A stretch of DNA of 34,947 nucleotides from a bacterium (lineage in GTDB: Bacteria; Acidobacteriota; Blastocatellia; HR10). Positions 2,019 to 34,947 of the stretch are shown here, in pieces; position 1 is the first letter of the stretch; the number at the start of each line of letters is the position of its first letter. A program made the translations under genes and the position numbers. The DNA lies in NCBI GenBank assembly GCA_041640655.1, contig JBEPZV010000027.1:1-34947 (forward strand), written 5' to 3'. The notes below the pieces were generated by a model. It was not told where the DNA came from, made no database searches, and was given only the letters and a program-made list of their open reading frames with translations.

Positions 2019-2639
2019 ATGCGCTGCGGGGATTACGGACGTTTGATCGCATGGGTCTGTGGTGAAGTCTCCGAGGCCGAGCGGGCGCGCATTGAGGCGC
2101 ATCTTGAGGAGTGTGCGGCCTGTCGGCGCGAGGCGGGCGAGCTTGAGACCCTGATCCATTTGATGCGGACCGATGAGAGCATCGAGGCGCCTCCCGAAGT
2201 TCGGGCGGCGGTCCTGCGGCTGTTCGAGGCGAGTCGGGGGGCGACGGCTTCCGGGATACGGCGGTGGATCGCCTCTCTGGTGCGCGATACCTGGGCGAGG
2301 CCGGCGGTGGCGGGAGTGCGCGGTCAAGGGGAGGCGGCGCGCCAGATGCTCTATCGAGGTGGAGGCTATGAGATCGCTCTGGCTCTGGAGCCGATCGCAG
2401 GGAGGCGGGTTCGCCTGATCGGACAGATTCTTCCCCTTTCGGATCGGCCGGAAGAAGTCGCCGGACGCGAAGTCTCCCTGCGGCGGGGGCGGGAGCCGAT
2501 CGCGCGCGGGAGGACGAATCATCTGGGGGAATTCGAGTTCGCGGCGATCCCCGAAGGGATCTACCAGTGGGAGATTCGCCTTGAGGGAGAAGAGGTGTGG
2601 ATCCCACAACTCGATGTTCGGGCCAGAGCGCGCCACTAG
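2019..2639 (+). CDS. Soluble zf-HC2 (ZAS) anti-sigma factor with C-terminal beta-sandwich (carboxypeptidase-regulatory-like) domain
   Basis: HxxxCxxC motif HLEECAAC near the N-terminus; directly downstream of the ECF sigma; no TM helix visible; C-terminal 'TNHLGEFEFAAIPEGIYQWEI' pattern. Confidence 0.85.
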   Translation: MRCGDYGRLIAWVCGEVSEAERARIEAHLEECAACRREAGELETLIHLMRTDESIEAPPEVRAAVLRLFEASRGATASGIRRWIASLVRDTWARPAVAGVRGQGEAARQMLYRGGGYEIALALEPIAGRRVRLIGQILPLSDRPEEVAGREVSLRRGREPIARGRTNHLGEFEFAAIPEGIYQWEIRLEGEEVWIPQLDVRARARH

Positions 2640-14689: not shown

Positions 14690-16360
14690 GTGAACGTCGG
14701 CACACCACATCGTCGCAGGGGGCCCGCCCCCCATTGGTCGAAGGGCTCGCGAGTCGCCCTCATTCTGCTTGTGCTTCTCGGTGACGGCGGGGCATTCTCC
14801 GGCTTCGCCACGTCGTTCCTTCCTGAAGAATCCCCCCGATCGAGCGCGGTGCAATCGGCCGGGCGGCGGTATCGGCAGGCCGAGCGCTTCATGCGCGAGG
14901 GGGATTACGAGAAAGCCGCCCAGGCCTATCGCGAGCTGCTGACGAAGAATCCCAAGGATCAACCGGCGCGGCTGGGACTCAGTCAGGCGCTGTTGAAGCT
15001 CGGGGACCTGAACGAGGCGTTCGAGCATGCGGCCGAAGTGCTGCGACAGGACCCGCAGAGTGCGCGCGCGCGCGCATTGATCGGCCTGGTGCTCCTGCGC
15101 TCGGGCGTCTTTCGAGAAGCGACCGAAGCGTTCGCCGCGGCGCTCGTTCTGGATGAACGCGAGGCCATCGCCTGGGCCGGATTGGCCGAGATTGACTTCT
15201 TCGAGAATCGCACCGAGCTGTCGTACCAACGGCTGCGACGGGCGACGGCGCTCGATCCGAGCGAACCCGACTATTGGATCGCCTTGGGACGGGCCGCCGC
15301 TCGATTGGAGAAGTTCCGCGAGGCGGCCGAGTATTATGAGAAATTCCTGGCCGTCTCCCCCAAGATGGATGTGGAGCGGCGGGAGCGGTATCGCGGATTG
15401 ATCGCCTTCTATCGCGCACTCTCGCTACTGGGCATCACGCATCTGCACCGTATCGAGGGGGAGCGCACGACCCGCATCCCCTTCCGATTGCAACGGGATC
15501 GCCCCTTCATTCAAGCGCGCGCCGGAAACAACGTGCTGCTGAACCTCGTCATTGATACGGGCGCGAGCATCTCCGTGCTCTCCTACGAGGCGGCGGAACG
15601 GTTGGGCATTCGTCCACTGGCGCGCGGGGGCGAGGCGCGCGCCGTCGGCGGCGGTGGGAAGTTCCCCATCGTCTATGGCTTGCTGGATTCGCTCGACCTG
15701 GGCGAGATTCGCATCTTCAACGTCCCGATCTATATTCGCACGATTCACCACACGGGAAATCCCGAGGGTGAGGGCGAAGCCGTGCGGGCCGACGGTTTCC
15801 TCGGACTCTCGGTATTGGCGAATTTCCGGTTCACCATCGACTATGCCGCGCAGACGATCATCTTGGAGACCGAACCGGTATCGGCGACGACCCCGGCGCC
15901 CATCGCAGAGGGTTCGGAGATCCCCTTCCGCACGACCAACGGCGGTCTGGTCAGCGCCGAGGTCAAACTGCATAACGGCGAGATCGTGAACTTCCTGATT
16001 GATACCGGGGCCAGCGCCACCGTCGTCGGCGCCCACGTGGTGAAGAAATACAACCTGGAGAAGCATATCCTCCCGTCTCCGAAGATTCGCGTGCTCGGCG
16101 CCGCAGGCGTCATCGAGAACGTAGATCTGATCCTGCTGCCCTCCCTCTCGATGAACAGCTTGGAGCAACGGAACATTCGCGCGCCGGTCCTCGACCTGGG
16201 AGCGGTAAACGAATCGGCGGGCTTCATGCAAGCGGGGATTCTGGGCGGGAGCTTCCTCAAACATTTCCGCGTGACGTTCGATTTCTCCCGCGCGCGGATT
16301 CGGCTCGTGCCGCAGACCGATGCCATCCGGTCCACGAACGAGCGACCTTCGGAGGGATGA
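14690..16360 (+). CDS. Exported or membrane-anchored TPR protein with two retropepsin-like aspartic protease domains
   Basis: N-terminal hydrophobic stretch and TPRs, then LVIDTGAS...GFLGLSVL and FLIDTGAS...GILGGSFL. Confidence 0.88.
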   Translation: MNVGTPHRRRGPAPHWSKGSRVALILLVLLGDGGAFSGFATSFLPEESPRSSAVQSAGRRYRQAERFMREGDYEKAAQAYRELLTKNPKDQPARLGLSQALLKLGDLNEAFEHAAEVLRQDPQSARARALIGLVLLRSGVFREATEAFAAALVLDEREAIAWAGLAEIDFFENRTELSYQRLRRATALDPSEPDYWIALGRAAARLEKFREAAEYYEKFLAVSPKMDVERRERYRGLIAFYRALSLLGITHLHRIEGERTTRIPFRLQRDRPFIQARAGNNVLLNLVIDTGASISVLSYEAAERLGIRPLARGGEARAVGGGGKFPIVYGLLDSLDLGEIRIFNVPIYIRTIHHTGNPEGEGEAVRADGFLGLSVLANFRFTIDYAAQTIILETEPVSATTPAPIAEGSEIPFRTTNGGLVSAEVKLHNGEIVNFLIDTGASATVVGAHVVKKYNLEKHILPSPKIRVLGAAGVIENVDLILLPSLSMNSLEQRNIRAPVLDLGAVNESAGFMQAGILGGSFLKHFRVTFDFSRARIRLVPQTDAIRSTNERPSEG

Positions 16361-18558: not shown

Positions 18559-18626
18559 CGTCCCTCCTCCGCGAGAGTGCGCAAACGAAGGTCTCGCCGC
18601 GCCTTCCCGGCAAACGCGATGTTCAT
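18555..18626 (-). CDS. 23-aa linker minigene (MNIAFAGKARRDLRLRTLAEEGR)
   Basis: ATGA overlap with the sigma stop (18623-18626) and ATGA overlap with the anti-sigma start (18555-18558). Confidence 0.35.
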   Translation of the reverse strand: MNIAFAGKARRDLRLRTLAEEGR

Positions 18627-19240
18627 GGGAGCCCCTCGCCGAAGACCGCAGCGAGTTTCGCCTGAAGCGCCCGCCGCCCCTGATGAAGATGAGCTTTGAC
18701 GGTATTGACGGAGAGGCCCATGATGGTCGCGATCTCCTGAACGGATTGTTCCTTCACGATTCGGAGGTACAGACAGCGGCGCATCTGCGGCGGCAGCTCC
18801 TCGAGGGCCTCGCGCAGCTTCTCCAACTTCTCCTTCTGCAGCACTCTCTCCATTGGATCGGCTCCACCGGTCACGACGTGCCGGGCCTCGCGATCGGACT
18901 CCGACGCGTGCGCCTGCTGCTCTTCCAGCGGGACCTGGGCGACGGCCCGCTTTTTCGCCCCTCGCCGCTCCATCTCGTTGATGTAGACATTCTTCGCGAT
19001 CCGATATAGCCATAACTCGAATTGGGCGGCCTCCCGCAGCTCGCCCAACCCTCTATAGACAGAAAAAAACGCCTCCTGGGTGAGGTCGCGCGCATCTTCC
19101 GACGACAACCCCTTTCGGCAGAAGAAGCGATAGAGCTGGCCGTAGTAGCGCTCGAACAGCAGGCGGAAGTTCTCTTCCCTGTCCCGCCCCTGTTGCAATT
19201 CCCGGATGATCACCGCCGTCGGCTTCTCCGACCCGATCAT
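18623..19240 (-). CDS. ECF-family RNA polymerase sigma factor (sigma 2)
   Basis: FRLLFERYY..EDARDLTQEAF..WLYRIAKN; region 4 LPPQMRRCL..EIATIMGLSVNTVKAHLHQGR. Confidence 0.93.
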   Translation of the reverse strand: MIGSEKPTAVIIRELQQGRDREENFRLLFERYYGQLYRFFCRKGLSSEDARDLTQEAFFSVYRGLGELREAAQFELWLYRIAKNVYINEMERRGAKKRAVAQVPLEEQQAHASESDREARHVVTGGADPMERVLQKEKLEKLREALEELPPQMRRCLYLRIVKEQSVQEIATIMGLSVNTVKAHLHQGRRALQAKLAAVFGEGLP

Positions 19241-19362: not shown

Positions 19363-19545
19363 CCGTTGCCGGGACCATAGAAATCTATCCCCGACATCCG
19401 CCCGTTGCCGGGCGGAGGCGCCGGTCTTACGCGCAAGCCGCGCTGCCGGCTTCCCGCTTCCTCCAGGACTGCCTGCCCACTCCAGGTCTTACGTCCCGTC
19501 CACGGGCGTTTTCCGTCTCCGGTCCACTCCCGGCGACGGCGGCCG
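19345..19545 (-). ncRNA. Putative TnpB omega/reRNA scaffold plus flank-derived guide
   Basis: Overlaps the tnpB 3' end and the right end (hairpin TCCGCCCG-gcaa-CGGGCGGA; ends ...GGCAACGG). The 5' boundary is approximate. Confidence 0.55.
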
Positions 19546-20692
19546 CAAGGACCGCAAGGTTGCGTGCCGCGTTCTCGTCCCGATCCAGGACCAGACCGCA
19601 AGCACCGCACCGAAACGTGCGCTCCCACAGGGGCAACTTCTCCTTCACCGCTCCGCAGTGGGAGCACGTCTTGCTGCTCGGCCAGAACCTGTCCGCCTCC
19701 ACCAGGCGCGATCCGTACCACACGCACTTGTACGCCAGCATCCTACGCAACTCGGCCGGTGCAGCGTCCGCAACTGCCCGCGCCAGGCAGCGGTTCCGCC
19801 TCATCCCCGCCACGCAGAGCCGCTCCACCACGATGACGCCGTAGGTTCGCGCCAGGCGCGTCGTGAGCTTGTTCCAGACATCACGCCGGATGTTGGCCAC
19901 GCGGCTGTGGGCACGCGCAAGCCTCCGCCTGGTCTCCTCATAGTTCTGACTCCCCCGCTTCCGGCGCCCAAGCTCCCGGTTCAGACGCGCGATCCTGCGC
20001 AGCGCGGCCTTGAGCGGGCGCGGGTTTTCCACCCGCTCACCCGTCGAGAGGACGGCCAGGTGTCGCAGCCCGGCGTCCACGCCTACCGCGACGTCGGGGA
20101 ACCTGGGGGCTTTCGGCTCGCGCTCCACCTCGCAGGTGAAACTCACAAACCACCGCCCGCCTTCATGGGAGACCGTCGCTCGCAGGATGCGGGCTTTCCC
20201 CGCTTCGATCTTTTCCACGAGCGCCGTCGTCAGTTCATACGTTCGCACTCGTCCGATCCGAGGGAGGACGACGGGGCTTTTGTCATCCACCCGGATCGCC
20301 CCGGTGGTGAAGCACACCGACTCCCGGCCCCGCCCCTTCTTCCGCAAGCGGGGGAAGCCTACCCGGCGACCGCTGCGCCTGCCTTTCCTGCTGTCGGACC
20401 AGTTCTTCAGGGCCGCCGCCAGGCCCGCAAGCCCCGACGAGTACGCCTCCTTTGAGTTCTCCCGCCACCAGGGAGCAGCCGTCTCCTTCGCCCGGTTCCA
20501 TTCCCGCCGCAAGGCAGGAAGCGTCCAGGGCACCTCCACATCCTCGCCCCGCTTGCGGGCTTCCAACCGCTCCTTCACCAGCACCAGCCCCCAGTTGAAG
20601 GCGAAGCGCCGGGCGCCCACATGCGAAGCCAGCGCCCGCGCGGCGCGGGGGGACGGATCAAGGGCAAAGCGGTATGCCTGATGCACGATCAT
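19427..20692 (-). CDS. tnpB: IS607-family RNA-guided endonuclease TnpB
   Basis: N-terminal AYRFALDP..GARRFAFNW; RuvC D (VGVDAG), E (IVVERL) and D (DRDENAARN); zinc finger CSHC..CGAC. Confidence 0.95.
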   Translation of the reverse strand: MIVHQAYRFALDPSPRAARALASHVGARRFAFNWGLVLVKERLEARKRGEDVEVPWTLPALRREWNRAKETAAPWWRENSKEAYSSGLAGLAAALKNWSDSRKGRRSGRRVGFPRLRKKGRGRESVCFTTGAIRVDDKSPVVLPRIGRVRTYELTTALVEKIEAGKARILRATVSHEGGRWFVSFTCEVEREPKAPRFPDVAVGVDAGLRHLAVLSTGERVENPRPLKAALRRIARLNRELGRRKRGSQNYEETRRRLARAHSRVANIRRDVWNKLTTRLARTYGVIVVERLCVAGMRRNRCLARAVADAAPAELRRMLAYKCVWYGSRLVEADRFWPSSKTCSHCGAVKEKLPLWERTFRCGACGLVLDRDENAARNLAVLAAAVAGSGPETENARGRDVRPGVGRQSWRKREAGSAACA

Positions 20693-24192: not shown

Positions 24193-27100
24193 ATGTCCCG
24201 TGACGAGACACGTGAAAAAGCGCGGCGACTCTTTCACTTCCTCAAAGAGTATGCGGCCATTCGGTTTCCCCTCGTGCGAGACCTCGACAGGGTCCGGTGG
24301 AAGCTCGCGCTCAATGAACTGCCCAAACATCCGACCATCACCGTGAACCGGTCTGTCGCCGAGGAGCCGGAGAACGCGGGCAATGACGAGCCCGCGATTC
24401 TCATGCGCATTCGGAGGCCGCGTCGCTCGACCCCGCCCCGGCTGCCGACTTCTCTGGAGGGCTGGCTTGATGGCCCCTTCGACGATCCGCATACGGAGCC
24501 CAAAATTCGCCCCGAGCGTCGCGTTGGGGAGGCTGACGGCACAGCGGAACGCTTCGATGCCGATCCGGCGCGATCTCGCGACTGGTCGGCATGGCTGGAG
24601 AAATGGCGCGCCTGGGCACAAAATGAACGCCCCACCCGCGAAGCCGAGAAGATTTACGAACGGTTCCACGAGCTGTACGGCGAGCTACAGCGCGAGGGAG
24701 AGCGCTACGAGCTGGTCCTCGCCGATGGGGTCCTCTTCTGGAAATGGCGCGACGGCTTCGTCCACTATCCCCTCATTCTGATGCCCGTGCAGTTGCGCTT
24801 CGATTCGGATGTCCCCGAGTTCATCATCCAGGAGACCGACCGAAACCCGGAGTTGAACACCCTGATTCTGCGCGACGCGCCGCTCACGAACCCCACCGTG
24901 CTCTCTTCCTTGCGCGACGAGGTCGCTTCCGGGAGCACGGTACTTCATCCTCTGGAAGAGGGAGGAGAGACCACGGCGTTTCTCACGCGATTGGCGCGCT
25001 CGCTCAGTGCGGACGGTGAGTTCACCGATGAGCCTCTTGATCCCCGCAGCGTTCGCGGTCCTCATCCCCTGCGCATCTGGCGGCAACCGATGCTGATGCT
25101 TCGAGAACGCTCCCAGGGGTATGCGCGGGGCGTCGAGCGCGTGCTGGAGGTTCTCCAGCAGGATGGGGAGATCCCCGAAGCGATCCGCTCGATCATGGGC
25201 ATGGCGCCGTCTTCCCGGACGAGCGTTTCGGGCACTTCCCACCGCGACGTCGCTTCCGATGACGATCTGGATCGCCTTCGCTCGGTGTACTTCACCAAGC
25301 CCTGGAACCGCGAGCAATTGCACATCGCCGATCGGCTCGCCCGATTCGGAGCCGTTCTCGTTCAAGGTCCGCCGGGGACGGGAAAGACGCACACCATCGC
25401 CAATCTCATCGGGCACCTGCTGGCGCAGGGTCGGTCGGTGCTCGTGACCGCGCACACCTCGAAAGCCCTGCGCGTGCTGCGCGACTTCATTCCGGAGCGG
25501 TTGCGCCCCCTGGCCGTCTCCGTTCTCGACGACGAGCTGGCCAGCCGCCAACAACTGGAGGAAGCCGTGCAGGCGATCACCGAGCATTTGAATCGTGACG
25601 CCAAACAATTCCACGAAGAGGCAGACCGACTCGAGCGCGAGCGCCAGCGCCTCCTTCAGGACATCGCGCAACTGCGAACGCAACTGGTCGAAGCTATCGG
25701 CAAAGAATATCGTCCCATCGTCATCGCCGGGCAGGAGTATTACCCTTTGGAGGCAGCGCGACGCGTTGCCGAAGGAATCGGATGCGATGATTGGATTCCA
25801 TCACCGGTGGAGCCGGGAACTGCTCTGCCGCTCAGCCACGAAGAACTCGCCGAGTTGTATCGCCTCAACCGCGAGCTTCCGAAGGAAGACGAACGCGAGC
25901 TGCTCGCTTCGCTTCCCGATCCGGAGAAGCTCCCCTCTCCCGAAGAATTCGAGAACCTGGTCGCGCGGATCACGCAAGCGGTGGAAGGTCACCGTCCGGA
26001 GTGGTGGGCGCAAGACCACACGGTCTCCGATATTCCCCTTCTGCAGGACGCCGCGAGGCGTGCACGCGAACTCGGCGAACGTTTGCAAGAAGCCAAGTCG
26101 TGGGAGCTGATGTTGATCGGGAGCAACTCCGCGCTCTTCGAGACAGAACTCTTCGGCCCAGCCGAAACCCTCCGTCGGCTTGTCGGGGAAACCGCCTCGC
26201 TGCGCATCGAGCACAATCCAGTGCTGCCGAATGACGGCGCCTGGGAGGAGCACGAGTGGATGGCCGAAGAACTGGCCGCACTCGCCGAGCGTCGAGGTGG
26301 GCGATTGACCTGGTGGGATGCGTCCGTTGCGCCACTTCTCAAGCGCCGCCGCAGGCGATTCCTCGCCTCGGCCAGAGTCGCCACGGGCAGGCCGATGCGG
26401 GTCGAGCACTTTCGTGCTCTGGCGGCGGAGGCGAGAATCAGAAAAGAGCGCGAGCGCCTCTGCCGAGCCTGGAACTATCTCATCACGCAGCGAGGCGGAC
26501 CGGAAGCGAAGACCCTTGGACCACAACCGCCGGAAGAAGCGATCGCGCAGCAGACCCCGTATCTCCTCCGGTGGCTCTCTCTGAACGAGGAGGTTTCGAC
26601 GCTCCTGGACGAGTTGCAGCGCTTGGGCCTGCGTTGGGATCATGCCTTTCGGGAACCGACCGGAGGCGATCCCGTTGCGCGGTGGCGTGCGCTCGGAGCA
26701 TTCCTCTCCGAGGCGCTCCCGGAGGCGTTGAACGCCGCTGCGCATAGGGCCGATCAGCAGGAGGCCAGGCAGCGCGTTCAAGCGGTGGACGGTTTGCTGG
26801 ACGCCTTTACCGATAGTGAGATCGCGACCGCCCTTCGGGAAGCGCTGAAGCGCCTCAATCCCGACCGCTATCGAGAGGCCCACAGACGCCTCCGCACCGT
26901 TTGGGCGAAACACGTTCATCTGGTGCGCCGCAAGGAGCTGCTCGAACGGCTCGCCCGCGTGGCTCCCGGTTGGGCCGATGCCCTTCGCACGCGAAGCGGC
27001 CGGCACGCTGAAGCCGAACTTCCCGGCGATCCGCACACGGCCTGGCTCTGGCGGCAACTCCACGACGAACTCGTCCGCCGTGCACAGGTAGACGTGCAGG

Positions 27101-28938
27101 AGCTTCAACGGCGACTCGAAGAACAGATGAAGCAGCTCCGCCAGGTGACCGAAGAACTCGTCTATCATCGCACTTGGGCTTATCGCATCGAGCAGACAAC
27201 ACAGGAGCACCGGCAGGCTCTCGTTGGCTGGCTCAACACGATCCGCCGACTCGGGAAAGGAAAGGGACGTTCGGCACCCCGCCTCCGCGAGCAAGCGGCC
27301 ATGCTGCTCGCCAAAGCCAAAGACGCCGTCCCCGTCTGGATCATGCCGCTTGGGCGCGTCGTCGAGCAAATAGATCCCACCCGGACGCGCTTCGATGTCG
27401 TCATCGTGGACGAGGCCAGCCAGTGCGACATGCTCGGTCTTCTGGCCGTCTTCCTCGCACGGCAGGTGATCGTCGTCGGGGATCACGAGCAGGTGAGCCC
27501 CGAAGGCGTCGGGCAGGAGCTTGCTCGTCTGGAGCATCTGCAACAGGAATTCCTGGAGGGCCACATCCCCAATGCGCATCTCTACGACGGCCGGCGTTCG
27601 CTCTACGACATCGCGCGCGAATCCTTCGGCGGCGCCCTCATGCTCACCGAACACTTCCGCTGCGTGCCCGAGATCATTGCCTTCAGCAACCGACTCTGCT
27701 ATGGCGGTCAAATCCGTCCGCTTCGCGAACAGAACAGCACACCACTGAAGCCCGCCGTCGTGCCTTATCGAGTCAGGGGGACGGCTCAGGGGAAGGTGAA
27801 CGAAGAGGAGGCGGAGACGATCGCCGCGCTCATCCTGGCCATACTGCAGCATCCGGCATACGCCGGAAAGACCATCGGCGTCATCTCCATGGTCGGCGAC
27901 GAGCAGGCCAAGCGGATCGAGCGTCTGGTCCGCGAGCGGTGCCTTGACAATCCCCCGCTGGAGCACGAGCTGGAGAAGCGGAAATTCCTCTGCGGCAATT
28001 CGGCGCAATTTCAGGGCGACGAACGGGACGTCGTTTTCCTCTCCCTGGTGGACAGTCCGAGCCCCGACGGCCCGCTTCCGCTGCGCAACGATGACCGATT
28101 CAAGCAGCGCTTCAACGTCGCCGCCAGCCGCGCCCGCGATCAGCTCTGGGTCGTCTACTCGCTCGATCCGGCGAGCGATCTCAAAGAGGGAGACCTGCGG
28201 CGCGAGCTGATCGAATTCGCCAAGCAAGCCTATGACAACCCCAATGCCGTGATCGCCATTCCGGAGGCCGAGCGCACCGAGTCCCCGTTCGAGCGGGAGG
28301 TGCTCGAGTGGCTGGTGCACAAAGGCTATCGCGTGCGTGCGCAGTACACGGTCGGAGCCTATCGCATTGACCTCGTCGTCGAGGGCGAGGCGGATCGCGT
28401 GGCCATCGAATGCGACGGGGGTCGCTACCACTACTCGAACGAACAGATTCAGCGAGATCTTGAGCGGCAGGCCGTGCTCGAACGGCTCGGTTGGCGCTTC
28501 ATTCGCATTCGCGGCTCCGAATTCTATCGCGATCGCGAAACTGCCATGCGCCGCGTGGAGCGGGAGCTGGAGCGGCTAGGCATCCGTCCGCGCGGCCGCT
28601 TTGCCGGTGAAGGTGATAACAAGGAGGTCTCCCCTCAGCCCTTGGTCGAGAAGATCCGCCGAGAGGCGGAGAGGATTAAGGCCGAACGCTCCGGGGACCG
28701 CGAGTCGGTGGAGCCGGTGCCGTCGCGCTACGCACTCTCATCACGGAGTGACGACAAGCCCGACACTCGTTCGTCTCCGCCCTCGCCCGGCTCGACGGTA
28801 CTCCGCTGGGCCGAACGACCGCGCGAATTAGGGGCGCAATCATCAACGGGCGCGACTTCTCCACCACCAACGGAAAGACTCTCGGAGCAACAGCCTCTCC
28901 ATCCTATCGTGCGAATCTTCCGGCATGGGAGGCGCTGA
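24193..28938 (+). CDS. SF1 (DNA2/Upf1-like, AAA_11/AAA_12) helicase fused to a C-terminal Vsr/DUF559-like endonuclease
   Basis: RBS AAGGAGGTG; motifs QGPPGTGKT, DEASQ, GDHEQ, LTEHFRC, FQGDERD and NVAASRAR; nuclease motif ESPFE..YRIDLVV..AIECDG..LERLGW. Confidence 0.92.
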   Translation: MSRDETREKARRLFHFLKEYAAIRFPLVRDLDRVRWKLALNELPKHPTITVNRSVAEEPENAGNDEPAILMRIRRPRRSTPPRLPTSLEGWLDGPFDDPHTEPKIRPERRVGEADGTAERFDADPARSRDWSAWLEKWRAWAQNERPTREAEKIYERFHELYGELQREGERYELVLADGVLFWKWRDGFVHYPLILMPVQLRFDSDVPEFIIQETDRNPELNTLILRDAPLTNPTVLSSLRDEVASGSTVLHPLEEGGETTAFLTRLARSLSADGEFTDEPLDPRSVRGPHPLRIWRQPMLMLRERSQGYARGVERVLEVLQQDGEIPEAIRSIMGMAPSSRTSVSGTSHRDVASDDDLDRLRSVYFTKPWNREQLHIADRLARFGAVLVQGPPGTGKTHTIANLIGHLLAQGRSVLVTAHTSKALRVLRDFIPERLRPLAVSVLDDELASRQQLEEAVQAITEHLNRDAKQFHEEADRLERERQRLLQDIAQLRTQLVEAIGKEYRPIVIAGQEYYPLEAARRVAEGIGCDDWIPSPVEPGTALPLSHEELAELYRLNRELPKEDERELLASLPDPEKLPSPEEFENLVARITQAVEGHRPEWWAQDHTVSDIPLLQDAARRARELGERLQEAKSWELMLIGSNSALFETELFGPAETLRRLVGETASLRIEHNPVLPNDGAWEEHEWMAEELAALAERRGGRLTWWDASVAPLLKRRRRRFLASARVATGRPMRVEHFRALAAEARIRKERERLCRAWNYLITQRGGPEAKTLGPQPPEEAIAQQTPYLLRWLSLNEEVSTLLDELQRLGLRWDHAFREPTGGDPVARWRALGAFLSEALPEALNAAAHRADQQEARQRVQAVDGLLDAFTDSEIATALREALKRLNPDRYREAHRRLRTVWAKHVHLVRRKELLERLARVAPGWADALRTRSGRHAEAELPGDPHTAWLWRQLHDELVRRAQVDVQELQRRLEEQMKQLRQVTEELVYHRTWAYRIEQTTQEHRQALVGWLNTIRRLGKGKGRSAPRLREQAAMLLAKAKDAVPVWIMPLGRVVEQIDPTRTRFDVVIVDEASQCDMLGLLAVFLARQVIVVGDHEQVSPEGVGQELARLEHLQQEFLEGHIPNAHLYDGRRSLYDIARESFGGALMLTEHFRCVPEIIAFSNRLCYGGQIRPLREQNSTPLKPAVVPYRVRGTAQGKVNEEEAETIAALILAILQHPAYAGKTIGVISMVGDEQAKRIERLVRERCLDNPPLEHELEKRKFLCGNSAQFQGDERDVVFLSLVDSPSPDGPLPLRNDDRFKQRFNVAASRARDQLWVVYSLDPASDLKEGDLRRELIEFAKQAYDNPNAVIAIPEAERTESPFEREVLEWLVHKGYRVRAQYTVGAYRIDLVVEGEADRVAIECDGGRYHYSNEQIQRDLERQAVLERLGWRFIRIRGSEFYRDRETAMRRVERELERLGIRPRGRFAGEGDNKEVSPQPLVEKIRREAERIKAERSGDRESVEPVPSRYALSSRSDDKPDTRSSPPSPGSTVLRWAERPRELGAQSSTGATSPPPTERLSEQQPLHPIVRIFRHGRR

Positions 28939-29066
28939 GATGTGCTCGATGCCGGCATCTGCCGACGTGGTCCCGAATCAGATCGTCGAGGACTTTTGCA
29001 CTGAATCCGTTCACCAGCGGTCCTGAGCTGCCATGTCGCTTCGGGCATTTGTTCTCCTCCGAAAAG

Positions 29067-29131
29067 GGCCACAGATTTCACGGATTCGCACCGAATTGTT
29101 ATCTCTGTGAGAATCGGTGTCTTCTGTGGCC
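29067..29131. repeat. Short intergenic palindromic (REP-like) element
   Basis: GGCCACAGA...TCTGTGGCC ends, with inner CACCGA/TCGGTG pairing. Confidence 0.5.
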
Positions 29132-29290
29132 GGCTTTTCATCGGTTCGGGGCGCCGCCACCGGCGACATGAATAACTCCTCCCGCTCGAATTTCTCGCGC
29201 AAGACGCGGCGAAGAGCGTGATGAAGCCTCATCATGCCAGTCCCAGAACCCGATCGGAGTTGGGGTGAACGGGCGGGGCAGAATCTTTGC

Positions 29291-29319
29291 TTGACGGACT
29301 CCGGGAGAAGGGATAAGCT
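29291..29319 (+). promoter_or_regulatory. Candidate sigma70 promoter for the TPR-CHAT gene
   Basis: TTGACG-17 nt-TAAGCT, about 35 nt upstream of ATG 29353. Confidence 0.5.
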
Positions 29320-29352
29320 CTTGCCAAACGATCCTGATCGGAGGGAAGGCTC

Positions 29353-32300
29353 ATGACATCACCGATGAGCGTCGGTTTGCCGCAGAGGGTTACCGGAGGA
29401 AGTCTGGGGGCCTCGCTTCTTCTGATCGTCGCCCTGGCGTTGCCGTCGCGCGTCCTTCTGCGGGCCCAGCAAGCGCAGGTGCTGGAGCCGGGCCAAGCGG
29501 TGGAACGGACGCTGGCCGGTGGGGAGCGTCACATCTACGCGCTCACCCTTTCGGCGGGTCACTACTTCCGTCTGGCCGTCGAACAGCAGGGGGTGGACGT
29601 GGTGGTGACGTTGTTCGGCCCCGATGGGCAGAAAATCGTCGAGATGGACAGTCCGACCGGGACTCAGGGGGTCGAGTCGGTGGCTCATGTCGCAGATATC
29701 GAGGGAGTTTACCGCGTGGAGGTGCGCGCTCTGGAGGAGCGAGCGCCTGCCGGGCGCTATACCATGCGCCTGGAGGAGCTGCGTCCGGCCACCGAGCAGG
29801 ATCGAACCCGCATCGCTGCCGATCGGGCCTTTGCCGAAGCCACGCTTCTCACTGCACAGCAGACGGCCGACGCACTCCGCCGGGCGATCGGGAAGTACGA
29901 GGAAGCTGCTCGGCTCTACCGCGCCCTGGATGATCGCCGGAAGGAAGCCGGATCTCTTTACCTGACCAGCGCCGTCTCCTTTCTGATCGGCGAAATCCGG
30001 AAGGCGCTCGAGTACCTCGGCCAGGCGCTGCCCATCTTCCGAGCCGTTGGAGATCGCCAAGGGGAAGCCATAACGCTCCACAGCATCGGCAGGGTGTATT
30101 GGGACCTGGGCGAGCAGCAGAAGGCGCTGGAGTACTACGGCCAGGCGCTGCCCATCTTCCGAGCCGTTGGAGATCGCCAAGGGGAAGCCATGACGCTCCA
30201 CAGCATCGGCAGGGCGTATTCGGACCTGGGCGAGCAGCAGAAGGCGCTGGAGTACTATGGCCAGGCGCTGCCCATCTTCCGAGCCGTTGGGGATCGCCGA
30301 GGGGAAGCCACGACGCTCAACGGCATCGGTGTGGTGTATTCGGACCTGGGCGAGAAGCAGAAGGCGCTGGAGTACTACGGCCAGGCGCTGCCCATCTTCC
30401 GAGCCGTTGGGGATCGCCAAGGGGAAGCCGCGACGCTCAACAGCATCGGTGTGGTGTATTCGGACCTGGGCGAGAAGCAGAAGGCGCTGGAGTACTATGG
30501 CCAGGCGCTGGCCCTCCGCCGAGCCGTTGGGGATCGCCAAGGGGAAGCCACGACGCTCAACAACATCGGCAGGGTGTATTCGGACCTGGGCGAGAAGCAG
30601 AAGGCGCTGGAGTACCTCGGCCAGGCGCTGCCCATCTTCCGAGCCGTTGGAGATCGCCGAGGAGAAGCCACGACGCTCAACGGCATCGGCTGGGTGTATT
30701 CGGCCCTGGGCGAGAAGCAGAAGGCGCTGGAGTACTATGGCCAGGCGCTGGCCCTCCGCCGAGCCGTTGGGGATCGCCAAGGGGAAGCCACGACGCTCAA
30801 CAACATCGGCACGGTGTATTCGGACCTGGGCGAGAAGCAGAAGGCGCTGGAGTACTTCGGCCAGGCGCTGGCCCTCAGCCGAGCCGTTGGGGATCGCCAA
30901 GGGGAAGCCACGACGCTCCACAACATCGGCACGGTGTATTCGGCCCTGGGCGAGAAGCAGAAGGCGCTGGAGTACTATGGCCAGGCGCTGGCCCTCCGCC
31001 GAGCCGTTGGAGATCGCCAAGGGGAAGCCATGGCGCTCAACGGCATCGGCAGGGTGTATTCGGACCTGGGCGAGCAGCAGAAGGCGCTGGAGTACTACGG
31101 CCAGGCGCTGCCCATCTTCCGAGCCGTTGGAGATCGCCAAGGGGAAGCCACGACGCTCAACAACATTGGCCTAGTATACTCGAAGTTGGGCGAGCAGCAG
31201 AAGGCGCTGGAGTACTATGGCCAGGCGCTGGCCCTCCACCGAGCCGTTGGGGATCGCCAAGGGGAAGCCACGACGCTCCACAACATCGGCGGGGTGTATT
31301 CGGACCTGGGCGAGCAGCAGAAGGCGCTGGAGTGCTTCGGCCAGGCGCTGCCCATCCTCCGAGCCGTTGGGGATCGCCAAGGGGAAGCCAGGACGCTCCA
31401 CAACATCGGCGGGGTGTATTCGGCCCTGGGCGAGCAGCAGAAGGCGCTGGAGTACTATGGCCAGGCGCTGCCCATCTTCCGAGCCGTTGGGGATCGCCAA
31501 TGGGAAGCCACGACGCTCCACAACATCGGTGCGGTGTATTCGGACCTGGGCGAGCAGCAGAAGGCGCTGGAGTACCTCGGCCAGGCGCTGGCCCTCTTCC
31601 GAGCCGTTGGATATCGAGAGGGGGAGGCCGTCGCGCTCGGCAATATCGCGCGCATCGAGCGGGATCGAGGGGAGCCGGCCCAGGCGCGGACCCGGATCGA
31701 AGCGGCGCTCGAACTGATCGAAGCCCTGCGGGCTGCTGCGCCGGGACCGGAACTGCGGGCGACCTTCTTGGCGTCCAACCGCGACTACTACGAGTTCTAC
31801 ATTGACCTGCTTGTGCGGCTCGATGAGCGGGAGCCGGGACGGGGGCATGATCGCGCCGCATTTCAGGCGAGCGAGCGGAGTCGGGCGCGAAGCCTGCTCG
31901 AGCTGCTGACCGAAGCCCGAATGGATGTGCGGCAGGGCATCGCGCCCGAATTGAAAGAGCGCGAGCGAGCCGTTCACGCCCGCATCGCCGGGATTCAAAG
32001 CCAACTGCTGCGCGTCCTGTCCCGAGCCAAGCCGAATCCGGCCGAAGTCGCGGCGCTCGAAGAGGCGTTGAAACAGGCCGACGCCGAGCGCGAGCAGGTG
32101 GAGCTGGAGATTCGGCGGAAGCATCCGCGCTATGCCGCGCTGCAGTATCCGACGCCGGTGGACGTGGCGTCGGTTCAAGAGGTGCTGGATGAGCAGACGG
32201 CGCTGCTCGAATATGTCCTCACGCGGGAGAGCGCGCTGCTGTTCATCCTCACCCGCGCGGATTTTCGGGTGCTGCGGTTGGGCGCGACGCCGGCGACGAT

Positions 32301-33339
32301 TCGGGAGCGGGTGGAGAAGCTACGGGCGGCCATCGCCGAGGGACCACAGTGGACGGTCTTCTCCAACTACGTGCTCAATGCCCGCTGGCTTTATCAAGAC
32401 CTGATCCAGCCGGCCGAGAAGTGGCTGGCGGGGAAGCGGGAGCTGATCATCGTGCCCGACGGCGTTTTGCATTATCTGCCCTTCGAGGTGTTGTTGACCA
32501 AGGGCGAGCTGACGGTCGAGCCGCGCGAGTTGTCTTACCTGGCGCGTGACTATGCCGTTCGCTATGTGCCGTCGGCGAGCGTGCTGGTCGAGCTGTCGCG
32601 GCCGGAGGCGGAGCGGTCCAAGCCGGGGAAGACGCTGGTGGCCTATGCCGATCCCGTCTACGGCGAGCCGGATGAGGCGAGCGCGGTGGGGAGGGCGCTG
32701 CGGAGCATGTGGGGGGAACTGCGGCGGCTGCCCCGGCTGCCCTACAGTCGTCAGGAAGTCGAGCGCATCGCCCGGCTCTATCCCGACGCCGAGGTCACGC
32801 TCTTTCTGGGCGCCGACGCCCGCGAGGAGAATGTCAAAAGCGGAGAGCCCGCGCGCTATCGCTTCGTCCACTTCGCCACGCATGGCGTGCTCAACGAGAA
32901 GCAGCCGCAGTATTCGGGCATCGTGCTGACGACGGGGGCGACGCGCTCCGGCTCGGGCGCACCGCGAGAGCCGGCGATGAGGGAAGAGGCGACCGAGGAC
33001 GGCCTGCTGCAGGTCTACGAGATCTTCAACCTGAAGCTGACGGCCGATGTCGTGGTGCTCTCGGCATGCGAGACCGGATTGGGCCGGGAGGTCAGAGGCG
33101 AAGGGATGGTGGGGCTCACGCGAGCGTTCCTCTACGCGGGCGCGCAAGCGGTGGTGGTGAGCCTGTGGAAAGTGGCCGATCCGGCGACGGCCGAATTGAT
33201 GATGCGGTTCTATCGCCAGATGAAGGCGGGCGTGGGGAAGGCCGAGGCGTTGCGCCGCGCGCGTTTGGAGTTGTTCCGCGAAGGTCGGTATGTGCATCCC
33301 TACTATTGGGCGCCGTTTGTCCTCGTGGGCGGGGCCTAG
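29353..33339 (+). CDS. Exported TPR-repeat CHAT-domain protease with N-terminal PPC-like beta domain
   Basis: Hydrophobic signal LLLIVALAL; PPC-like 'VEQQGVDVVVTLFGPDG'; 40-aa TPR array; CHAT IVPDGVLHYLPF, HFATHG (His), VVLSACETG (Cys), HPYYWAPF. Confidence 0.95.
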   Translation: MTSPMSVGLPQRVTGGSLGASLLLIVALALPSRVLLRAQQAQVLEPGQAVERTLAGGERHIYALTLSAGHYFRLAVEQQGVDVVVTLFGPDGQKIVEMDSPTGTQGVESVAHVADIEGVYRVEVRALEERAPAGRYTMRLEELRPATEQDRTRIAADRAFAEATLLTAQQTADALRRAIGKYEEAARLYRALDDRRKEAGSLYLTSAVSFLIGEIRKALEYLGQALPIFRAVGDRQGEAITLHSIGRVYWDLGEQQKALEYYGQALPIFRAVGDRQGEAMTLHSIGRAYSDLGEQQKALEYYGQALPIFRAVGDRRGEATTLNGIGVVYSDLGEKQKALEYYGQALPIFRAVGDRQGEAATLNSIGVVYSDLGEKQKALEYYGQALALRRAVGDRQGEATTLNNIGRVYSDLGEKQKALEYLGQALPIFRAVGDRRGEATTLNGIGWVYSALGEKQKALEYYGQALALRRAVGDRQGEATTLNNIGTVYSDLGEKQKALEYFGQALALSRAVGDRQGEATTLHNIGTVYSALGEKQKALEYYGQALALRRAVGDRQGEAMALNGIGRVYSDLGEQQKALEYYGQALPIFRAVGDRQGEATTLNNIGLVYSKLGEQQKALEYYGQALALHRAVGDRQGEATTLHNIGGVYSDLGEQQKALECFGQALPILRAVGDRQGEARTLHNIGGVYSALGEQQKALEYYGQALPIFRAVGDRQWEATTLHNIGAVYSDLGEQQKALEYLGQALALFRAVGYREGEAVALGNIARIERDRGEPAQARTRIEAALELIEALRAAAPGPELRATFLASNRDYYEFYIDLLVRLDEREPGRGHDRAAFQASERSRARSLLELLTEARMDVRQGIAPELKERERAVHARIAGIQSQLLRVLSRAKPNPAEVAALEEALKQADAEREQVELEIRRKHPRYAALQYPTPVDVASVQEVLDEQTALLEYVLTRESALLFILTRADFRVLRLGATPATIRERVEKLRAAIAEGPQWTVFSNYVLNARWLYQDLIQPAEKWLAGKRELIIVPDGVLHYLPFEVLLTKGELTVEPRELSYLARDYAVRYVPSASVLVELSRPEAERSKPGKTLVAYADPVYGEPDEASAVGRALRSMWGELRRLPRLPYSRQEVERIARLYPDAEVTLFLGADAREENVKSGEPARYRFVHFATHGVLNEKQPQYSGIVLTTGATRSGSGAPREPAMREEATEDGLLQVYEIFNLKLTADVVVLSACETGLGREVRGEGMVGLTRAFLYAGAQAVVVSLWKVADPATAELMMRFYRQMKAGVGKAEALRRARLELFREGRYVHPYYWAPFVLVGGA
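30001..31620 (+). repeat. Tandem array of 120-bp units (13 complete plus a partial 14th) encoding 40-aa TPR motifs
   Basis: The unit start AAGGCGCT(C/G)GAGT recurs every 120 nt from 30001 to 31561. Confidence 0.97.
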
Positions 33340-33513
33340 ACAACCCGCGCGAAGCGTTCCGAACACAAGCCCGAAGCGTTCCGCATCCAAGCCCGCGCAC
33401 GCAGGCGGCCCATGCGGAAGGCGGACCGTGATGTCGCCGGATGAACACCGTGTGCGATCGTGCGGATGGGCCGCCCCCTTCGGGGGCTTGGGGAATGATC
33501 GGGGCGACGTTGT

Positions 33514-33570
33514 CCCAGGGCTCGCTCGCGCTCGCCTCGGGCTACGTTCGCACGCCCGCTCGCGCGGGCT
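33514..33570 (-). repeat. REP-like element (same family as 34422-34610, opposite orientation)
   Basis: Reverse complement reads AGCCCGCGCGAGCGGGCG...AGCCCGAGGCGAGCGCGAGCGAGCCCTGGG. Confidence 0.55.
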
Positions 33571-33691
33571 TGATGCGGCGTGGCGGCCTCTCGAATAACC
33601 TCGCCTCCGGCCCGCTCTGGACGAGATCCGGACGCCTGCTCGATCTGGCTTCGTGCAGAACATCTCAATGGGGCTCACACTCTCATCAGCC

Positions 33692-34150
33692 TCACGGGAC
33701 CTCCGGGTTGAGAACGCGAAGCCCCTCGCGTTGAGCAGCAGCGCAGAGCCTGGCATCTGCGCACACAAAGCAATCTAACGAGCCTTGAGCGCGAAGCCAG
33801 ACGGCCACCGCCAATTGCAGTGCATCGAGCGTACGCAATGGGTGACGCAATCCCCACCTCGCCAACAAACGAATCGCTTCCCGCTCGTGAACGAAAGTGA
33901 ATCGAACGATCCGGAATGTCCTCGCCCTGAGGTCCGCAAAGAAACGCCCCTGCCATTGCCGGAATGGCGCCGCCGTGATCTCTCCTGCTCTAACGCGCCG
34001 GGCAAAGGCGGCGTGAATCTCCACCAGACGGATGTGAGAGATGAAACAGCGGTGAGCGGGGTCATCAACAAGCGCGATCACCGTGGGACTGCCGATCTCC
34101 AGGTGATAATACTTCACCAGGGCGCTGGTATCGAGAAAAAGGTGAGCCAT
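33692..34150 (-). CDS. vapC: VapC-family PIN toxin
   Basis: LFLDTSALVKYY, E in RLVEI, LRTLDALQLA, FVCADARL. Confidence 0.92.
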   Translation of the reverse strand: MAHLFLDTSALVKYYHLEIGSPTVIALVDDPAHRCFISHIRLVEIHAAFARRVRAGEITAAPFRQWQGRFFADLRARTFRIVRFTFVHEREAIRLLARWGLRHPLRTLDALQLAVAVWLRAQGSLDCFVCADARLCAAAQREGLRVLNPEVP

Positions 34151-34161
34151 AGCGGGCGAAC

Positions 34162-34365
34162 TCAGCGCCGATCACGCTCGGCGCTCACATCGGCTGCCAG
34201 AGGCCCGGGGATGGCTGCCAGGGTTTGACGCACGGATTCAATGGAGATGCGCTCATCCGCTTCGGTCTCGATATATCTCCCCAGTTCGTTTTGCCAGAGC
34301 GCTAGATCTTCTACGGGCTCTTGTGGGGCATGCTTCGGTTTTCTGCGTTTCCGTGTCGTCGCCAT
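34162..34365 (-). CDS. Putative cognate antitoxin
   Basis: Small ORF (MATTRKRRK...GPLAADVSAERDRR) just upstream of vapC, with an antitoxin-like C-terminus; RBS GGAGG. Confidence 0.7.
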   Translation of the reverse strand: MATTRKRRKPKHAPQEPVEDLALWQNELGRYIETEADERISIESVRQTLAAIPGPLAADVSAERDRR

Positions 34366-34421
34366 CCTGGACCCTCCGAAGGCCAGATGATAGCAACATC
34401 GAGGCGGCCGAATCAACCTGG

Positions 34422-34610
34422 GTTCCACCCGTGAGCCCGCGACGCGGGCGGCCGAGTTCAGCCCGGAGTGAGCACGCACGAACCCACGGTGTGAAACCGA
34501 CCCCGTTCCACCCGCGAGCCCGCGAAGCGGGCGATCGAATTTCGCCTAGGGTGAGCGCCGCGAACCCACGTTGTAAGCCCAATCCCATTCCACATGCGAG
34601 CCCGCGCGCG
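34422..34610 (+). repeat. Tandem REP-like units (82-83 bp period, two full and one partial)
   Basis: TTCCAC..GAGCCCGCG starts at 34423, 34506 and 34588; the two full units continue ..GCGGGCG...GTGAGC..CGAACCCACG. Confidence 0.7.
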
Positions 34611-34679
34611 GATGGGCCGGGCGGATTCGCCCGCTTGCCCGTGTCGGTGACATGGGGGAATCGCGTGCAGGGAATTTTT

Positions 34680-34707
34680 TTGACATCGCCGAGGTTTTTG
34701 TTATTCT
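34680..34707 (+). promoter_or_regulatory. Candidate sigma70 promoter (extended -10)
   Basis: TTGACA-16 nt-TATTCT, with TG immediately upstream of the -10. Confidence 0.55.
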
Positions 34708-34846
34708 AGGTGCCGATCGCGGCGTCGGGTGGACGAACGATGGAGGAAGAGGCGAGGCTCGCCCTCTCAACGTCGTGAAGGGGGTGAGTGATCCTCATCC
34801 CCGGTCGGGTGAGGGAGCATGAATTTATCCTGGAAAGGAGGGCGTG

Positions 34847-34947
34847 ATGATGACCAAGCGGCGAATCGCGAGAATGATGCTGGCGGCGGGCACGGTTGGG
34901 CTTCTGATCTTGCCCGCCCTGGTCTATACGCAAGTCACCGGACGCGT
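34847..34947 (+). CDS. N-terminus of a secreted protein, truncated by the window edge
   Basis: RBS AAAGGAGG; MMTKRRIARMMLAAGTVGLLILPALVYTQ is a signal-peptide pattern. Confidence 0.6.
   Translation, partial: MMTKRRIARMMLAAGTVGLLILPALVYTQVTGR

Follow-up and report, generated by a model that had tools for sequence, protein, structure and literature searches.

Homogenised TPR units with diversifying helix-A residues on a probably exported CHAT protease of a hot-spring acidobacterium

The window analysed here, 34,947 nucleotides of contig JBEPZV010000027.1 (assembly GCA_041640655.1), is one entire contig (C27) of a 3.1-Mb genome bin of 128 contigs and 63.7% G+C from a hot-spring acidobacterium, and near its end it carries a gene in which a tandem array of tetratricopeptide repeats (TPR) is joined to a caspase-like CHAT domain. 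According to our analysis this array is, with moderate probability, a diversifying ligand-binding TPR superhelix on a probably exported CHAT protease. Thirteen of its units are nearly identical, and within them a small set of codons, including those of the first helix of the repeat (helix A), changes the encoded amino acid at about four times the silent rate. A reading of the same DNA made from its letters only, referred to below as the original prediction, had pointed to a variable receptor of this kind.

Results

The gene, which we call the TPR-CHAT gene, and its parts are listed below with coordinates in the window, strand and basis.

29340..29345 (+): Shine-Dalgarno-like GGAGGG, 7 nt 5' of the ATG; read in the sequence
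29353..33339 (+): TPR-CHAT gene, 1328 aa and stop, with PPC-like domain, TPR array and CHAT domain; open reading frame (ORF) list, Pfam
29353..29463 (+): N-terminal hydrophobic segment (residues ~17-37), candidate signal peptide or membrane anchor; Kyte-Doolittle
29464..29832 (+): PPC-like beta-rich domain (residues 38-160); homologue matches
29833..29994 (+): degenerate N-terminal capping helices of the TPR domain (residues 161-214); Pfam SNAP/TPR matches begin at residue 172, conserved in orthologues
29995..31554 (+): 13 near-identical 120-bp (40-aa) TPR units; Tandem Repeats Finder, unit alignment
31555..31674 (+): unit 14, a diverged C-terminal capping unit, orthologous across genomes; nucleotide differences
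31675..32379 (+): helical linker or scaffold (residues 775-1009); sub-threshold Pfam only, family-wide conservation in an alignment of homologues (A1)
32380..33336 (+): CHAT caspase-like protease domain (residues 1010-1328); PF12770
32881..32883 (+): codon of the putative catalytic His1177 (HFATHG); column at least 90% conserved in 49 homologues
33067..33069 (+): codon of the putative catalytic Cys1239 (SACETG); nearly invariant in A1

Since there is an in-frame stop six codons 5' of the ATG, 29353 is the first possible start and the beginning of the gene is well defined.

Tandem Repeats Finder reports one array at 30000..31610 (period 120, 13.4 copies, 91% matches, 0 indels, score 2494), and Pfam recognises TPR_12 in 14 stretches (E 5.6e-185) and TPR_1 in 12 (E 3.3e-79). 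We number columns 1-40 in each unit, unit 1 beginning at nt 29995 with residue 215, and in this register all 13 unit spacings are exactly 40 amino acids. Units 1-13 have a mean pairwise nucleotide identity of 90.2% (range 82.5-99.2%), adjacent units a mean protein identity of 0.82, and unit 14 differs from the others at 31-36 nucleotides. The description of the units as nearly identical even at synonymous sites has to be qualified, for silent differences occur in 9 columns (proportion of synonymous differences, pS, 0.087), several of them clustered in unit 10. A second copy of the unit DNA was searched for elsewhere in the genome and was not found.

The variable residues had been read correctly. 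In units 1 to 13 the dipeptide before IG runs HS, HS, NG, NS, NN, NG, NN, HN, NG, NN, HN, HN, HN, the residue after IG runs R, R, V, V, R, W, T, T, R, L, G, G, A, and the residue after EA runs I, M, T, A, T, T, T, T, M, T, T, R, T, each series exactly as first given, although columns 1, 8, 13-15, 22 and 37 had been left out. The variable columns are 26, 29, 30, 33 and 37, with 15, 8, 13-14, 22 and 1 in addition, and columns 13-15 read either PIF or ALR, ALS or ALH. When the variable residues of each unit are written as a word, all 13 words of the source genome are distinct.

Placement of these columns on the TPR fold comes from two independent alignments. Pfam TPR_1 sets its first profile position at residue 599, which is column 25, and HMMER alignments to solved chains return the same register, with columns 25-40 as A1 to D16 of the consensus TPR. 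In this register columns 26, 29, 30, 33, 36 and 37 are TPR positions 2, 5, 6, 9, 12 and 13, columns 13-15 are positions 29-31 (column 15 being 31), and columns 22-23 form the loop; the spacing of the variable columns 26, 29/30, 33 and 36/37 has a helical periodicity. The array aligns gaplessly, at the 40-residue period, to Pins and LGN/GPSM2 with E values from 1e-38 to 1e-43, for instance to 5a7d_B (E 1.6e-41) and 6hc2_A (E 1.5e-40), which places its units among TPRs of the LGN/Pins 40-residue type, and I-G-[column 33] aligns with the L-G-N triplet of these proteins. Asn at TPR position 6, the position of the asparagine ladder of OGT, is retained in 7 of the 13 units and in nearly all units of the related genomes.

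Magliery and Regan (PMC1261162) describe TPR positions 2, 5, 9, 12, 13, 33 and 34 as the most variable and as lying on the concave face, and positions 2, 5, 6, 9, 12 and 13 as contacting ligand in HOP. In Pins/LGN an extended peptide occupies the inner groove, held there by bidentate hydrogen bonds between its main chain and the Asn of the LGN triplets (PMC3438535), and in OGT the asparagine ladder lines the TPR lumen that holds the substrate (bioRxiv 10.1101/2020.12.22.423982). By homology, the variable helix-A residues would lie on the concave ligand face. The original claim that helix A lines the ligand groove and that the variable codons sit there agrees with this register for positions 2, 5, 6, 9 and 13.

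By the Nei-Gojobori method (NG86), the ratio of replacement to silent change (dN/dS) among units 2-13 is 1.18 overall, 6.4 in columns 26, 29, 30, 33 and 37, a set chosen post hoc, and 0.14 in the 29 least variable columns. For cross-validation the variable columns were set from the arrays of two other genomes (at least 3 residues in a column), which gave 8, 15, 22, 26, 29, 33 and 37, and the source genome was then tested on them. By minimum-event counting, 20 replacement events over 17.1 sites stand there against 9 silent events over 30.4 sites, a ratio of 3.97 (binomial p=3e-4), while the remaining columns give 0.42 by the same count and all columns together 0.70-1.48. The per-codon comparison that had been proposed as a check therefore has the variable columns changing amino acid at about four times the silent rate, and it supports diversifying selection on the helix-A codons of the array, as far as such selection can be read from codon counts.

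Two other causes of this variability were considered and rejected. In the five helix-A codons the pairwise difference at codon positions 1, 2 and 3 is 0.38, 0.42 and 0.09, against 0.07, 0.04 and 0.07 in the 34 other columns; since the third base does not rise above background, a mutational hot spot at these codons is an unlikely cause. Long-term upkeep of unit-specific residues by purifying selection working against homogenisation was rejected as the main cause, since words and their order differ among close relatives, the sole exception being unit 3 of genome G002 and unit 3 of locus L098, which are 5 nt apart and have the same word.

Relatives were sought with the C-terminal half of the protein, which had matches in 59 of 61 related genomes. 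The source genome is G000 below, other G numbers are related genomes, and L and P numbers are other loci and proteins; percentages are C-terminal identity to G000.

G000 (window): 14 units
L098 (1.25-Mb metagenome contig): 97% (DNA 96.6%), 7 units
P0152 and P0153: 97%, 4 units each
G002: 95%, 9 units
G005: 93%, 5 units
G007: 70%, 3 + 5 units, split by a frameshift within the array
G020: 58%, about 10 diverged units

The units group by genome. Of the 13 G000 units, 12 are closest to some other unit of G000 itself, and the mean distance per 120 nt is 10-13 within genomes vs 15.5-16.7 among G000, G002 and G005. The capping unit 14 has its nearest relatives in the last units of G002, G005 and L098 (9-18 differences). 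Synonymous divergence (dS) among units is 0.09, below the 0.157-0.199 found between species in the C-terminal half, and the arrays must for this reason have been rebuilt after the lineages split. All four gametes occur in 54 of 78 pairs of biallelic sites within units, with a minimum number of recombination events (Rm) of at least 6; because of these pairs we regard the units as mosaics.

Comparison of related arrays finds unit number and content to differ among close relatives. None of the variable-residue words of G000 recurs in L098, despite the 96.6% identity of their C-terminal DNA. P0153 equals L098 less units 2-4, P0152 represents 7 member sequences, and in the group at about 70% identity, where arrays have from 4 to 17 units, P0166 equals P0159 plus one unit. 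Such whole-unit insertions and deletions among alleles fit unequal crossing-over. Variability by column agrees between G000 and G002/G005 (Spearman 0.71).

The ends of the gene have different histories. The 177 residues before unit 1 are 71/68% identical between G000 and G002/G005 (dS 0.94/0.90), the 554 residues past the array are 95/93% identical (dS 0.16/0.20), and the signal segment of G000 is unrelated to those of G002, G005 and L098. This suggests a mosaic gene in which recombination may have replaced the 5' module. In the orthologue from G007 (locus L016, contig C62), which belongs to a sister genus, the frame changes inside the array at about 2040-2077, with 3 units before and 5 after; either the gene is a pseudogene there, or its repeats were misassembled or misread in sequencing.

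The C-terminal half contains what appears to be an intact caspase-like protease. Pfam CHAT (PF12770) matches residues 1010-1326 at E 1.6e-76 over profile positions 4-288 of 289, which is a full-length match, and a putative His/Cys dyad is present: H1177 and C1239 lie in columns conserved in at least 90% of the 49 homologues of alignment A1. The fusion of a TPR array to a caspase-like protease, as first proposed, is confirmed at the level of families by this match and that of TPR_12. The best Pfam match of the linker, residues 775-1009, is a weak one (E 0.0012). With the C-terminal half as query, 863 proteins match at E<=1e-100.

Several observations bear on export. The best 13-residue Kyte-Doolittle window reaches 2.75 at residue 18 (2.51 and 2.84 in the orthologues), a hydrophobic window of at least 2.0 precedes the domain in 113 of 131 homologues, and a possible LRA|QQ cleavage site can be read by eye near the N-terminus. 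With residues 38-160 as query there are 7259 matching cluster representatives (E<=1e-3), the matches lying for the most part at the N-termini of TPR-CHAT proteins of 1000-1300 aa, and among them are three proteins built of 7-16 tandem PPC domains; with PF04151 (PPC) itself, 15 of 30 short homologues match at E<=0.01, of which 2 reach the cut-off, as against 3 of 9 long TPR-CHAT homologues. We therefore speak of a PPC-like domain, and PPC domains accompany secreted enzymes. The protein has two cysteines only, residues 661 and 1239, which we count among the points for export. Because of the hydrophobic N-terminus and the PPC-like domain, we propose that the protein is exported or N-terminally anchored with an extracytoplasmic body, and the earlier placement of CHAT activity outside the cell is plausible to this extent.

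Metagenome data bear on the assembly of the array. Four runs, each of a different study, contain 69-82% of the words sampled. Logan contigs of these runs match the flanks without differences and end at 30039/30047 and at 31561, and the Logan pieces listed inside the array are 55-94 nt long with 0 mismatches, none spanning one unit; the contigs do not bridge the array, and its unit order and number are neither verified nor contradicted by them. In run X1 the depth of unit-specific pieces (2831-3278) compared with the flanks (3267-3484) fits single-copy units in most cells. Exact repeats within the array reach 107 nt at most, and unique 31-mers make up 54% of its total; assembly with large k or reads of 150 nt could in principle order it, and the assembled unit order and number are plausible.

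The array belongs to a wider pattern. Similarity to the C-terminal half, used as the sole criterion, brought together 79 genome loci; a tandem array of coding period is present in 32 of them and has a period of 120 in 27, mostly in filamentous cyanobacteria. Of these 27, 16 were examined, and 15 are in open frame (L027 is not); in the 14 arrays of at least 4 units used for the correlation, the mean entropy by column follows that of G000 (Spearman 0.64, p=9e-6), and the top variable columns 15, 26, 29, 33 and 37 are common to both. The cyanobacterial consensus unit is identical to that of G000 at 33 of 40 residues, as against 34-40% for the C-terminal halves, and the TPR scaffold is thus far better kept across phyla than the protease, which we read as a sign of strong purifying selection on a consensus-like TPR. 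The cyanobacterial TPR-CHAT arrays share with the window array the period of 120 and the variable columns, and differ in phylum, in the C-terminal half and in the N-terminal domain: the PPC-like domain is found in 6 of the 79 loci and in only 3 of the 27 with period-120 arrays. Among the best 150 matches to that domain there are 61 long proteins, 3 of them with stretches of at least 70% lag identity.

The PADLOC match of the TPR-CHAT protein is to a generic TPR model only, and the NCBIfam matches are partial, of TPR type and far below the cut-offs. The name 'Regulatory protein AfsR' carried by the orthologues P0154 and P0155 was rejected as a mis-annotation, the AfsR model scoring 189.8 bits against a cut-off of 1430 on the TPR part only. 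Among the 16 Pfam families matched there is no NTPase (NACHT/NB-ARC or other), and the protein is in this respect not of the NOD-like receptor (NLR)/STAND kind. Rfam had no match in 28000..34947, and a scan for promoters and terminators in 28800..29450 found nothing.

Paralogues and neighbouring genes

A paralogous locus (L144, contig C34 of the source genome, 614-5280, minus strand) has an operon-like string of genes for an extracytoplasmic function (ECF) sigma factor, a zf-HC2 anti-sigma factor with TPRs and a PPC-like/TPR/CHAT protein of 1010 aa, the last with diverged repeats and standing directly after the sigma and anti-sigma genes. This string resembles DdvA/DdvS split into separate proteins and fits an envelope-signalling role for the family. 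The window has a second TPR-CHAT gene at 2581-5517 (+), of 978 aa and with diverged repeats, followed directly at 5530-7326 (+) by an S8 subtilase with a fervidolysin-like prodomain; next to a third CHAT gene, on contig C30, the neighbouring ORF is subtilase-like by eye only.

Upstream of the TPR-CHAT gene, at 24193-28938 (+), there is a gene for a superfamily 1 helicase of 1581 aa (AAA_11/AAA_12) with a C-terminal MTES_1575/DUF559 nuclease domain, which matches PADLOC PDC-S37 (E 4.7e-72) and Hhe (E 4.6e-38) and is syntenic upstream of the orthologue in G005 at 88.7% nucleotide identity. Downstream, a PIN-domain ORF at 33692-34150 (-) (E 4.8e-7) and a small ORF without family match at 34162-34479 (-) may be a toxin-antitoxin pair, and at 34423-34606 there is an 83-bp tandem repeat of 2.2 copies (78% matches) with G+C-rich inverted repeats. 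Further off, 14690-16360 (+) encodes a protein of 556 aa with N-terminal TPRs and two retropepsin-like aspartyl protease domains (Asp_protease_2, E 1.2e-24; gag-asp_proteas, E 1.1e-22), and an IS605-type TnpB gene (OrfB_IS605, with a Cas12f1-like TNB domain) at 19427-20692 (-) lies near an ECF sigma gene at 18623-19240 (-).

Discussion

From the information given above it would be logical to suggest the following course of events. The array would be the ligand-binding part of the protein, a long superhelix of LGN/Pins-type 40-residue TPRs, whose scaffold positions may be homogenised by unequal crossing-over and gene conversion among units, while selection for amino-acid change would push apart the concave helix-A residues (positions 2, 5, 6, 9 and 13), position 31 and the loop. 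As units are gained, lost and recombined, new combinations could arise at the pace at which species and strains diverge. If LGN/Pins and the OGT lumen are a guide, the ligand would most likely be an extended polypeptide stretch lying in the groove, and its binding may bring a substrate to the CHAT active site or, as in craspase, in separase and in the proposal made for DdvA, switch the protease on allosterically. We infer such a coupling of binding to proteolysis from the fusion of TPR and CHAT and from the known TPR-CHAT proteins, in one of which, DdvA, the periplasmic TPR-CHAT part is proposed to cleave its own linker (PMC11506125). The protein may serve to recognise variable proteins, either non-self or from the environment.

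The known systems show how far these likenesses go. In fungal NLRs the repeats of high internal conservation (HIC) have units at least 80% identical, a few codons under diversifying selection, polymorphic unit numbers and unequal recombination (PMC12222747), in line with the original statement that fungal NLR arrays combine concerted evolution with diversified binding positions; the window array likewise has identity of at least 80%, diversifying codons and, judged from assemblies of the relatives, polymorphism of repeat number and content. HET-E, HET-D and the NWD proteins, with their WD40 repeats, and the TPR and ankyrin (ANK) members share internal identity, diversifying codons and unit turnover with the window array, whereas they carry NACHT or NB-ARC and the window protein is bacterial, probably extracytoplasmic, ends in CHAT and has 40-aa TPRs. 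Bacterial NLR-like TPR and WD repeats have 80-90% internal identity, and rapid diversification has been suggested for them (10.1101/2020.01.06.895854), but their 42-residue TPR-like class (Marold et al. 2015, as cited there) goes with NB-ARC/NACHT and a 42-aa period, unlike the 40-aa period, the want of an NTPase and the export-like N-terminus found here.

Pins and LGN (GPSM2), by sequence the closest natural proteins of solved structure, have the GDR loop and the 40-residue period of the window array and bind extended peptides in the inner groove through helix-A residues (PMC3438535), although they are eukaryotic, with 8 diverged repeats and no protease, and position 9, a conserved Asn in LGN, is the most variable column of the window array. 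DdvA of Myxococcus xanthus is an anti-sigma factor with a periplasmic TPR-CHAT part and a His-Cys dyad, proposed to sense a signal and cleave, and unlike the window protein it has nine diverged TPRs, a transmembrane helix and, on the cytoplasmic side, a zinc anti-sigma domain (PMC11506125); in the window protein there is no zf-HC2 match, the hydrophobic segment has only about 16 residues before it, and the distance to the closest ECF sigma gene is 10 kb. The craspase component Csx29 and separase join TPR to CHAT, the protease being controlled allosterically or through a bound substrate or inhibitor (PMC11506125), both in the cytoplasm; the Csx29 model NF041237 gives 20.8 bits against a cut-off of 300, and no type III-E genes are among the window ORFs scanned. 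A limited literature search brought up no publication that describes HIC TPR arrays in CHAT proteases of the exported kind.

A number of points weigh against a diversifying receptor on an exported protease. Exposure in the groove is taken from alignment to solved TPRs, and columns 15 and 22 are outside that placement. The selection counts are minimum-event estimates, and the 120-nt units recombine, share ancestry and are not independent across genomes. Unit insertions and deletions seen in metagenome assemblies may partly be assembly collapse. The original prediction looked for variation in repeat number and order within a population, and this was not confirmed: the same unit variants occur with 0 mismatches in the four metagenome runs, which gives no sign of fast change within this population. 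On the side of export, the signal-peptide evidence is hydrophobicity and a cleavage site read by eye, and residues 38-160 of the window protein have zero Pfam matches at E<=10. The C-terminal half has zero matches at E<=0.01 among the sequences of the Protein Data Bank (PDB), and because of this the likeness to DdvA, craspase and separase is limited to Pfam family and architecture. No sigma or anti-sigma gene adjoins the TPR-CHAT gene. To our knowledge, no ligand, substrate or activity has been reported for any member of the subfamily.

It is unlikely, in our estimate, that the array is a structural spacer or generic scaffold, recently amplified, in which the variable columns are merely the least constrained surface and no recognition evolves. 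Such a spacer would agree with an overall dN/dS near 1 (1.2; event counts 0.70-1.48), with the stability of the unit variants in the four runs, and with the fact that the same columns are the most variable in TPRs generally (PMC1261162) and in diverged arrays; but neutral sites should not exceed the silent rate, and the excess observed is about 4-fold in the cross-validated columns and 6-fold in those chosen post hoc, with the third positions of the same codons at background and with 13 distinct words of which zero are shared with L098, its C-terminal DNA being 96.6% identical.

A second alternative, which we also consider improbable, accepts that the ligand varies but not that it is a peptide of which each repeat reads a part: the array would bind an envelope or matrix polymer or a folded surface, and CHAT would be constitutive or act as a site-1 protease in sigma/anti-sigma signalling. 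PPC domains generally go with secreted enzymes, and the paralogue in the ECF sigma/anti-sigma operon would suit such a role, as would the self-cleavage in the periplasm proposed for DdvA (PMC11506125) and the example of PgaA, whose periplasmic TPR domain binds polysaccharide (PMC9384988). The closest solved relatives, Pins and LGN, nevertheless bind extended peptides in the groove, the Asn at position 6 is kept in most units, and the TPR-CHAT gene itself is without an adjoining sigma or anti-sigma gene.

That short-read metagenome assembly has falsely produced the array, or the order and number of its units, we think very improbable. The sequence is from a bin of 128 contigs, Logan contigs stop at the borders of the array with inner pieces of 55-94 nt only, the contig of one orthologue ends within the gene and another orthologue is frameshifted inside its array. 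Against this, the unit-specific pieces have 0 mismatches in four runs and a depth in X1 near that of the flanks, the longest exact repeat of 107 nt and the 54% of unique 31-mers leave the array tractable, and comparable arrays occur on contigs of great length or in records whose titles call them complete chromosomes (L027, L066, and L098 on 1.25 Mb). A cytoplasmic NLR-like, craspase-like or retroelement-diversified defence sensor is likewise very improbable, for although CHAT with repeat sensors is common in such systems (10.1101/2020.01.06.895854, PMC10907252) and the neighbours are defence-like (the helicase-nuclease matching PDC-S37/Hhe and the PIN gene), Pfam finds no NTPase domain, Csx29 scores 20.8 bits vs 300, a hydrophobic N-terminus is followed by the PPC-like domain, and no reverse transcriptase is among the 25 window ORFs scanned. 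A diversity-generating retroelement (DGR) had been considered as AAC codons dominate columns 29-30, and was rejected for the want of a reverse transcriptase in those ORFs and of a template repeat.

Conclusions

The reading that we prefer remains a diversifying ligand-binding TPR superhelix on a probably exported CHAT protease. We may go one step further, to what we regard as a long shot: a modular, reprogrammable peptide reader, in which Asn at position 6 would hold the peptide backbone, positions 2, 5, 9 and 13 would read 2-3 side chains per unit and the turnover of units would write new specificities, so that the protein would serve a thermophilic acidobacterium as a surface-exposed protease of innate immunity or kin recognition. 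If this were true, the closeness of the scaffolds across phyla, 33 of 40 residues as against 34-40% identity for the protease half, would mean that one ancient consensus cassette is widely reused as a programmable binding module.

The principle is not new, the pattern being known from fungi and noted for bacterial NLR-like proteins. There are a great many PPC-TPR-CHAT and related TPR-CHAT proteins, and the alleles described here form a natural series of 4 to 14 units on a near-constant protease with candidate specificity residues identified, which makes binding and activation directly testable. The case would extend the evolution of HIC-repeat receptors from cytoplasmic NLR-type proteins to a probably extracytoplasmic protease in Acidobacteriota.

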